Shown: positions 12,420-12,757, numbered from the stretch's first letter. The stretch is 64,000 nt of DNA from Synergistaceae bacterium (GCA_031258255.1 JAIRNC010000056.1:3428-67427), one strand, 5' to 3'. Notes: generated by a model not told the origin, from the letters alone. Numbers and translations: made by a program.

Positions 12420-12448
12420 AAAAAAGGCCTACGCTCGCGCGTAGGCCT
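12420..12448 (-). terminator. Intrinsic terminator (expression platform of the riboswitch)
   Basis: Minus strand reads AGGCCUACGC-GCGA-GCGUAGGCCU followed by UUUUUU: a 10-bp perfect GC-rich stem (12425-12434 / 12439-12448) with a U6 tract (12420-12425). Confidence 0.75.
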
Positions 12449-12504
12449 CGCTAAAACTATACGACATATCCCGAAAACGGATGACGAGAGATACGTCTGC
12501 GCCC

Positions 12505-12720
12505 ACCGCGCATATCCTCCCGACTCGTATCCTGACTCACGTTCACCCTACTCCCACGCCTTCCCGCCTTGTTGGAGGCAGTGGCTCGCTCGCGCATGTG
12601 GTTTCGTCCCGATTACAGTGGCGGGGCCGCTCCGGATTCTCACCGGATTCCTCGTTGCCCGGGATTCATCTGTATTCAATTGTGCAAATCTGTCATTTCT
12701 GCCACCACGTACTGCTTAAG
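12505..12720 (-). promoter_or_regulatory. Cobalamin (B12) riboswitch
   Basis: Minus strand reads ...GGGCAACGAGGAAUCCGGUGAGAAUCCGGAGCGGCCCCGCCACUGUAAUCGGGACGAA...GAGCCACUGCCUCCAACAAGGCGGGAAGGC...GUGAGUCAGGAUAC. This matches the conserved cobalamin aptamer core (GGGAA-CCGGUG-AAUCCGG-GC-CCCGC-ACUGU), the CCACUGCC...GGGAAG element and a B12-box-like AGUCAGGAUAC. Candidate P1 is UCCCG/CGGGA. Confidence 0.8.
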
Positions 12721-12728
12721 ACTAACGT

Positions 12729-12757
12729 ATTCTACACCCGCGGCTGTGTTTTGTCTA
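12729..12757 (-). promoter_or_regulatory. Sigma-70-like promoter driving the riboswitch
   Basis: Minus strand TAGACA (12757-12752), 17-nt spacer, TAGAAT (12734-12729). Confidence 0.55.

Follow-up and report, generated by a model that had tools for sequence, protein, structure and literature searches.

The control of an antisense RNA by a riboswitch is an established mode of regulation, and a survey by Serrano-Gutierrez and Merino (2023; PMC9943018) gives two cases with experimental proof, AspocR of Listeria and an S-adenosylmethionine (SAM) riboswitch lying antisense to ubiG-mccBA in Clostridium acetobutylicum. AspocR (Rli39) of Listeria monocytogenes is an antisense RNA to pocR that is gated by a vitamin B12 riboswitch (Mellin et al., 2013, as summarised in PMC9943018). 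The survey further predicts 190 cobalamin riboswitches in antisense orientation, for which the enrichment is significant (P=1e-10), and regards as fortuitous those antisense riboswitches that lie beside pseudogenes or transposases (PMC9943018). Here we describe a related arrangement in a stretch of 64,000 nucleotides from a Synergistaceae bacterium (GCA_031258255.1 JAIRNC010000056.1:3428-67427; hereafter the window), in which a cobalamin riboswitch unit on the minus strand (12420–12757) has no open reading frame (ORF) of its own to control and points into the 3′ end of a gene of the DUF3786 family, beyond which lies an operon of acs genes. Our favoured reading, to which we give a probability of about 0.42, is that this autonomous unit exerts a B12-gated antisense effect on DUF3786.

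Class-I, i.e., adenosylcobalamin (AdoCbl)-type, cobalamin riboswitches are transcriptional OFF switches that act via a kissing loop between L5 and L13. In other systems, riboswitches are part of small RNAs: EutX of Enterococcus and Rli55 of Listeria are riboswitch-containing small RNAs that sequester the ANTAR regulator EutV, and the ANTAR-binding motif of EutX consists of paired hexaloop hairpins. As in EutX and Rli55, the window holds a B12 riboswitch with its own promoter that would gate the length of a non-coding RNA; unlike in these systems, the region that would be read through contains no ANTAR-type hairpins of the kind just described, and none of the window ORFs scanned is a eut or ANTAR gene.

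In its layout the arrangement is of the AspocR type, a form of regulation already known; here the antisense reading is plausible, and the setting is evolutionarily young. Like AspocR as the survey summarises it, the window unit has its own promoter, lacks a downstream ORF and converges with the 3′ end of a gene associated with a B12 pathway; its intrinsic terminator (T1) likewise precedes the target, so that only ligand-free readthrough would make the antisense RNA, and the predicted logic matches, a cofactor-dependent module being expressed only if the cofactor is available (PMC9943018). Unlike AspocR, the putative target is an uncharacterised DUF3786 protein rather than a transcription factor, the host is an uncultured member of the Synergistaceae, and the arrangement occurs in one species-level lineage only, its antisense transcript being predicted. 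The SAM riboswitch of ubiG-mccBA offers the same logic, as the cofactor terminates the antisense RNA and the dependent pathway is thus on only with cofactor, whereas ligand, RNA family and target all differ from those of the window (PMC9943018). By the survey's working definition, an Rfam match at most 500 nt away from where a convergent gene ends, the window unit belongs with these 190 predicted cases: 217 nt separate its aptamer, and 131 nt its T1, from the stop codon of DUF3786. Of the survey's categories, “cofactor-requiring pathway” or “uncharacterised ORF with orthologues” would fit it (PMC9943018). Neither DUF3786 nor the Synergistaceae is among the cases in the parts of the survey examined, the supplementary tables not having been searched (PMC9943018). 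The original prediction, which had recognised the orphan riboswitch and proposed either an antisense RNA or a far-upstream leader, called both arrangements unusual; given the 190 catalogued in the survey, this was overstated (PMC9943018).

The cobalamin riboswitch and its expression platform

Throughout the whole 64-kb window, Rfam at the gathering threshold returned a sole match, the RF00174 (Cobalamin) aptamer at 12688–12505 on the minus strand, which, at 85.2 bits (E=1.4e-19), exceeds the gathering score of 31.5 and covers model positions 1–189, i.e., the full model. The copy in a second assembly, the scaffold L004 described below, scored 85.3 bits. The core was present with high posterior probability and comprised the GGUGnnAAuCCgg hairpin, the C-rich L5 loop (CCCCG, 12626–12622, flanked by CC to 12620), ACUGUAA, GCCACUG...CGGGAAGG and the B12 box, which reads AGUCAGGAUAC (12537–12527, minus strand) where the consensus is AGCCAGGAGAC. 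In the RF00174 alignment the peripheral element GCCACUG...CGGGAAGGC falls inside 12505–12688. P1 as aligned by Rfam is weak, and its alignment is not alike in the window and L004 copies. A closing P1-like helix can nevertheless be read from the sequence, pairing UCCCGG (12664–12659) with UCGGGA (12523–12518), and the two one-sided changes that it carries in L004 keep the pairing (C12661U, giving U.G, and U12523C, giving G-C).

Upstream of the aptamer, a consensus scan found a sigma-70-type promoter-like site at 12757–12729 on the minus strand (TAGACA at 12757–12752, a 17-nt spacer and TAGAAT at 12734–12729), which has 10 of 12 consensus matches and ranks first among the five promoter-like sites of a 2.2-kb stretch, where shuffles give 1.5. 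None of the 38 positions of the stretch 12723–12760 is substituted in L004. Transcription from this site would probably start near 12722. Downstream, T1 (12420–12449, minus strand) is a perfect inverted repeat, AGGCCUACGC / GCGUAGGCCU, with fully (100%) complementary arms at 12448–12439 and 12434–12425 and a GCGA tetraloop, followed by a U6 tract at 12425–12420. Minimum free energy (MFE) folding lengthened the stem to 11 bp (12449–12439 with 12434–12424; about −21.6 kcal/mol). Its sole change in L004, A12448G, preserves the pairing as G.U. The aptamer, the TAGACA-17-TAGAAT promoter and the 10-bp GC hairpin with its U6 tract had each been called in the original prediction, and all three calls held.

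Between aptamer and terminator lies the putative expression platform. Immediately 3′ of the P1-like helix, both the MFE and the centroid folds contain the hairpin UGCGC-GGUGG-GCGCA (12512–12498), which we take to be P13/L13 from the position and character known for class-I cobalamin riboswitches. Its GGUGG loop (12507–12503) is complementary to CCGCC in L5, a candidate kissing loop read from the sequence. When the 3′ part of the transcript was ended at the T1 loop, i.e., with the 3′ arm of T1 not yet made, folding predicted an antiterminator (12437–12511, minus strand) of 10 bp, in which 12511–12507 pair with 12441–12437 and 12505–12501 with 12446–12442, G12506 being bulged, and which encloses a second helix (12497–12488 with 12472–12463). 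This structure is the local MFE of 12525–12435 (−28.4 kcal/mol) and lies at most 3.5 kcal/mol from the MFE of the whole truncated transcript. Once the 3′ arm is withheld, the antiterminator thus uses exactly the P13/L13 element; since these nucleotides are also predicted to pair with the 5′ arm of T1, the same bases can form P13/L13 or sequester the terminator arm. This either/or pairing of 12511–12501 looks like classical transcriptional OFF-switch logic, and the platform looks complete.

By its sequence the riboswitch is a bona fide cobalamin transcription unit without an ORF to control, cobalamin binding being predicted. It shares with canonical class-I OFF switches the full RF00174 architecture, the peripheral GCCACUG...GGGAAGGC, the B12 box, a P13-like hairpin next to P1 on its 3′ side and an intrinsic terminator, with which a predicted antiterminator would compete; it differs from them in its weak Rfam-aligned P1 and in lying in no gene's 5′ untranslated region (UTR).

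The following sequence of events is proposed. An RNA would start near 12722 from the sigma-70-type promoter. With B12 bound, the aptamer would close and the G-rich L13 of P13 (12512–12498) would dock on the C-rich L5, leaving the 5′ arm of T1 free, so that T1 forms and an RNA of about 300 nt is released at 12420, 131 nt before DUF3786. Without B12, the P13/L13 segment 12511–12501 would pair with the 5′ arm of T1 (12446–12437) and the polymerase would read through, giving an RNA antisense to DUF3786. Low B12 would then bring convergent transcription and antisense RNA and lower DUF3786 expression, while at high B12 DUF3786, a gene associated with the corrinoid iron-sulfur protein (CoFeSP) and acetyl-CoA synthase (ACS), would be free to be expressed. 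The unit may have lost its coding target or never had one, a rearrangement having put it tail-to-tail with DUF3786.

The readthrough path, DUF3786 and the acs operon

Downstream of T1, what follows is not the leader of a B12 transport, B12 biosynthesis or B12-independent isozyme gene; after a non-coding spacer of 131 nt (12419–12289) comes the antisense strand of the DUF3786 gene (11575–12288, plus strand; PF12654, 119 bits), the only thing in the readthrough path. This gene is convergent with the riboswitch, and a flagellin gene on the other side of the riboswitch (12922–14406, plus strand) is divergent from it. The spacer contains two further hairpins. One, found by a repeat search at 12309–12356, has 19-nt arms (12309–12327 and 12338–12356) that are 95% complementary; the other, at 12375–12394, was detected by a scan for terminator sites and is terminator-like for the plus-strand DUF3786 gene. 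As a separate observation, the 11-mer ACGCGCGAGCG occurs three times on the minus strand, at 12597–12587 (with one mismatch), 12442–12432 and 12356–12346, and each copy can fold as a CGC-GCGA-GCG mini-hairpin.

An overlooked small ORF downstream of T1 could in principle be the controlled gene, an explanation that we find hardly credible. Only one minus-strand ORF of at least 40 aa follows T1 (11986–12414, 142 aa, GTG start), inside the antisense of DUF3786; it has no Pfam match and is interrupted by an in-frame stop codon in the 97%-identical L004, and it was rejected as a hidden target on both counts. Shorter ORFs exist, such as a 19-codon AUG ORF at about 12293–12234 (minus strand), but this one lacks a Shine-Dalgarno sequence at a usable distance, and it begins in an indel-rich patch that is unconserved even in L004. 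All three minus-strand frames of 12460–12100 look non-coding. Both the absence of a credible minus-strand ORF and the 131-nt spacer leading into antisense DUF3786 are therefore as originally described, and no ORF seems to have been missed. With its own promoter, as judged by consensus match, and no ORF of its own, the unit has the attributes expected of an antisense-acting riboswitch. Since no ORF follows T1 and antisense DUF3786 comes next, readthrough at low B12 would run only antisense into DUF3786; were promoter and switch active, it would give convergent transcription and DUF3786 antisense RNA with no further evolution needed.

In eight Synergistaceae loci the DUF3786 gene is divergent from the acs operon, the two being always so paired in this family, and in L003, a locus from the Coriobacteriia, two paralogues of DUF3786 stand in tandem (6007–6639 and 6705–7361) behind ACS, CoFeSP and RACo. 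By gene context, DUF3786 is thus linked to CoFeSP/ACS/RACo corrinoid chemistry, in keeping with the original claim of a family repeatedly associated with corrinoid and Wood-Ljungdahl loci. Among the ORFs examined in the 64-kb window, the only B12-related genes are DUF3786 and those of the acs operon. The AlphaFold model of the protein is confident overall, with a predicted local distance difference test (pLDDT) score of 82.8. Comparison with the PDB gave no sequence match, and Foldseek returned nothing below E=0.05; as the model is confident and has no structural match below that value, the fold appears to be uncharacterised. A literature search on the function of DUF3786 returned nothing relevant, and exact-protein look-ups with the window protein gave no record.

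The minus-strand operon beyond DUF3786 was confirmed by Pfam much as it had been read: it encodes a protein with a homocysteine (Hcy) S-methyltransferase domain, a 367-aa MetE-like protein, two CooC proteins, a carbon monoxide dehydrogenase (CODH) and an ACS fused to CdhD. At the head of the operon (9208–11243, minus strand), the Hcy S-methyltransferase-domain protein (311 aa) is followed by the 367-aa protein, which has no Pfam match and only a weak match to a short NCBIfam methionine-synthase model. MesB-type core methionine synthases occur in ACS/CoFeSP operons, with CoFeSP as the proposed source of their methyl groups (PMC7857596). To judge from its context and the weak model match, the MetE-like protein looks like such a MesB-type, corrinoid-protein-dependent enzyme rather than a B12-independent isozyme. 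Further along the operon, 2162–5635 (minus strand) encodes a 1157-aa fusion of CODH_A_N, CdhC and ACS_CODH_B_C (AcsB) with a CdhD domain (small CoFeSP subunit), after which a CdhD/FeS large subunit of 440 aa is encoded on its own at 833–2155. Related Synergistaceae (L005, L008 and L009) and the Coriobacteriia locus L003 conserve the AcsB-CdhD fusion.

These genes bear directly on the second original proposal, that the riboswitch is the far-upstream leader of the MetE-like/acs operon, readthrough at low B12 crossing DUF3786 and the AT-rich region to raise transcription of the Hcy-methyltransferase/MetE-like/cooC/CODH/ACS genes. The operon is on the same strand, and the scan found no minus-strand terminator-like site from 12420 to 7507, so that no predicted intrinsic terminator would stop the RNA before the acs genes. 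Such an RNA would, however, have to escape Rho over about 1.2 kb of untranslated antisense sequence, and in seven relatives, none of which has a riboswitch there, the operon order and the AT-rich control region are kept. A rise in expression at low B12 would also have the wrong sign: the MetE-like/acs module looks corrinoid-dependent, which makes a leader that is turned off by B12 illogical. We consider this explanation very unlikely.

A lineage-specific junction

The window belongs to a Synergistaceae lineage that, from isolate codes, we presume to come from the termite gut. L004 is an independent ENA metagenome scaffold carrying P0001, the closest DUF3786 homologue (97% identity), and aligns to 6754–20191 of the window at 96.9% identity. 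The order DUF3786/riboswitch/flagellin, the junctions, the promoter, the platform and the terminator are the same in both; a misassembly was thereby ruled out, and the arrangement is not an artefact of one assembly. In L004 the flagellin, Hcy methyltransferase and MetE-like genes are split, probably by homopolymer sequencing errors, and DUF3786 is 214 aa long through a 1-nt indel in a T-run at about 12207 of the window; indel differences between the two assemblies should for this reason not be over-read.

Further DUF3786 loci were compared at seven places (L001, L002, L003, L005, L008, L009 and L010; 40%–83% identity to the window protein). All seven keep the acs operon with its divergent DUF3786, and nucleotide synteny ends at about 12185 of the window. 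What stands after DUF3786 includes what we read as an AbrB-type antitoxin-like small ORF (L001), a small Cys-rich ORF, Amt/MtmB/pyl genes, an ABC-F gene, a type III CRISPR system and an alanyl-tRNA synthetase gene. In L005, whose DUF3786 is 83% identical, the region 11117–19634 encodes an ammonium transporter, a B12-binding corrinoid protein, MtmB and pylS/B/C/D-like genes; MtmB is split between two called ORFs, as would be expected if an in-frame UAG encoded pyrrolysine. In L009, the sequence directly beyond DUF3786 (9129–16663) encodes type III CRISPR-Cas effectors (RAMPs, Cas10 palm and Csx19), which shows the 3′ flank of DUF3786 to be a recurrent hotspot of integration and rearrangement.

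On the other side of the riboswitch, two loci share with the window the gene order NYN-DegT-OmpH-AdoK-RNase J (ribonuclease J), with sequence in common only from about 14485 onward (L013 and L014, with 93% and 85% RNase J protein identity, respectively). Homologues of the flagellin gene share sequence, including the 5′ UTR, only from about 12859 onward and stand in unrelated contexts. With left-hand synteny ending at about 12185 and right-hand synteny starting at about 14485, the interval from about 12200 to 14480, which holds the riboswitch unit and the flagellin gene, forms a junction, specific to this lineage, that links the conserved acs–DUF3786 block to the conserved NYN–RNase J block, and its riboswitch unit of about 560 nt has no counterpart elsewhere in the compared loci. 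Three candidate associations were dropped on these grounds: a conserved linkage of riboswitch and DUF3786 (by the seven loci), an ancestral target on the RNase J side (by L013 and L014) and a linkage to the flagellin gene (by its homologues, which have in common with the window only the 5′ UTR from about 12859 and have other contexts).

The left edge of the junction lies within DUF3786 itself. From about 12190, the last 35 codons or so form a lineage-specific tail that is absent from all 27 of the 27 aligned homologues, and residues 203–237 have pLDDT values below 50. Across the stop codon runs an indel-rich patch (12272–12299), the sole badly aligned stretch between window and L004 (alignment columns 685–736), which is probably a rearrangement scar. 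The unique tail, its low pLDDT and the badly aligned stop-codon patch are compatible with a rearrangement breakpoint located where DUF3786 ends, and together with the synteny limits they point to a young arrangement, placed by a lineage-specific rearrangement. A mobile element was not apparent: the unit is not bordered by long repeats, and no similar sequence occurs at any other place in the window.

Regulation or relic

Against an antisense role stand observations of three kinds. As to the mechanism, T1, being very stable, is formed in every equilibrium fold, MFE and centroid alike, so that folding at equilibrium is no guide to a coupling between T1 and the aptamer; in addition, both hairpins of the spacer stand in the readthrough path. 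The antiterminator duplex (−21.7 kcal/mol) is not significant against dinucleotide shuffles (p=0.08 in the window and 0.16 in L004), in a test that has little power, since a comparison riboswitch with a real downstream gene (L011) also fails it (p=0.39). As to conservation, the riboswitch is absent from all seven further DUF3786 loci (0/7) and from both right-hand syntenic loci (0/2), no two of the seven have the same gene after DUF3786, and only the window and its 97% twin L004 retain the arrangement, so that a constant convergence of riboswitch and DUF3786, as the original prediction had envisaged, does not hold. DUF3786 has, moreover, lost its native end and reads some 35 codons into foreign sequence, with the scar over its stop codon. 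As to selection, the riboswitch RNA (12420–12722) differs from that of L004 by 11 substitutions in 303 positions (3.6%), against 4.0% (144/3594) at third codon positions and 1.66% at first and second positions of eleven flanking genes. Seven substitutions fall in the aptamer, T1 or the promoter hexamers, and none breaks a proposed helix or a promoter hexamer; with critical sites defined as Rfam-paired positions, the conserved unpaired core, T1 pairs, the U-tract and the promoter hexamers, one or two of the seven are disruptive where about 3.2 were expected (P=0.08–0.29, depending on the treatment of P1). The riboswitch thus diverges at a neutral rate, and purifying selection, for which neither the rate test nor the substitution-pattern test was significant, cannot be shown; the divergence of L004 is shallow and the power of the test low, so that the data are compatible with constraint and neutrality alike. 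The antisense RNA against DUF3786 originally proposed stands as a mechanically coherent scheme with a plausible antiterminator, and falls short in that the arrangement is not conserved and evolves at a neutral rate.

Many of these observations suit a stranded relic, in which DUF3786 was fused at its 3′ end, by deletion or recombination, to the 5′ UTR of what had been a B12-regulated operon whose genes were lost, leaving a riboswitch that is intact only because the event is recent, that has no regulatory role and that will decay. A lineage-specific junction between two conserved blocks, a DUF3786 gene deprived of its native stop codon at an indel-rich scar, and a neutral substitution rate without significant sign of constraint are all expected of it. 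The recent rearrangement is also the situation that the survey treats as fortuitous for many antisense-located riboswitches near pseudogenes and transposases (PMC9943018). Several facts sit less well with such an origin. The window and L004 copies score as high as functional riboswitches, no recognisable remnant of a former downstream gene was found in 12420–12190, and a landing beside the sole corrinoid-linked genes in 64 kb would have to be coincidence. Further, an active promoter and switch would give readthrough into DUF3786 at low B12, selected or not; as readthrough occurs if the unit is active, the lack of any effect would require a silent unit or a constitutive T1. We regard the relic as a serious contender while leaning against it. 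If it were correct, intact high-scoring riboswitches with promoter and terminator could be functionless leftovers, which would call for caution in reconstructing regulons from metagenome-assembled genomes.

A constitutive T1 would also be the basis of a stand-alone B12-binding small RNA of about 300 nt, acting in trans, in the manner of SreA or EutX/Rli55, or buffering B12. The unit's own promoter and strong terminator, the presence of T1 in MFE and centroid folds whatever the state of the aptamer, and the non-significant antiterminator complementarity are what such an RNA would display. It would hardly be of the EutX/Rli55 kind, however: paired hexaloops of the ANTAR-binding type described above are absent (the T1 loop has 4 nt, those of the spacer hairpins 8 and 10 nt), and the window ORFs examined include no eut, pdu or ANTAR gene. 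No candidate trans target was identified, and the unit is not conserved past one lineage. On balance this explanation seems improbable.

Should the B12-gated antisense effect on DUF3786 be real, it would be a third phylum-level case of riboswitch-gated antisense control, from a Wood-Ljungdahl/CoFeSP locus of the Synergistota; DUF3786 would gain a first functional handle, its expression being tied to B12 supply; and the case would indicate that such regulators can arise by a single rearrangement step and not by gradual evolution. A bolder version, which we put forward as speculation and think rather unlikely, is that the unit is a recently recruited B12 “licence.” Antisense RNA made at low B12 would silence DUF3786, which would be a corrinoid-dependent accessory factor of CoFeSP, and would perturb the MesB-like/CooC/CODH/ACS operon via the divergent promoter region that the two share, the locus being an antisense riboswitch caught at birth by rearrangement.

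Relatives of the riboswitch were few. An exact scan of metagenome contigs with a 37-nt core found only L011 and L012, neither of them orthologous, and a plasmid search with the riboswitch core gave only two 50-nt core matches in Streptomyces. In L011, a cobalamin riboswitch with the identical 37-nt core and its own terminator (3398–3705) lies upstream of a gene for the large subunit of ribonucleotide reductase (3764–5287; Ribonuc_red_lgC). Lastly, between the riboswitch and flagellin promoters of the window, an 8-nt tandem repeat, GTGATTTC (minus strand, 12781–12806), is present in three copies as against one in L004, with an inverted copy at 12853–12864 (region 12849–12864); these repeats may be an operator or a slippage-prone repeat.

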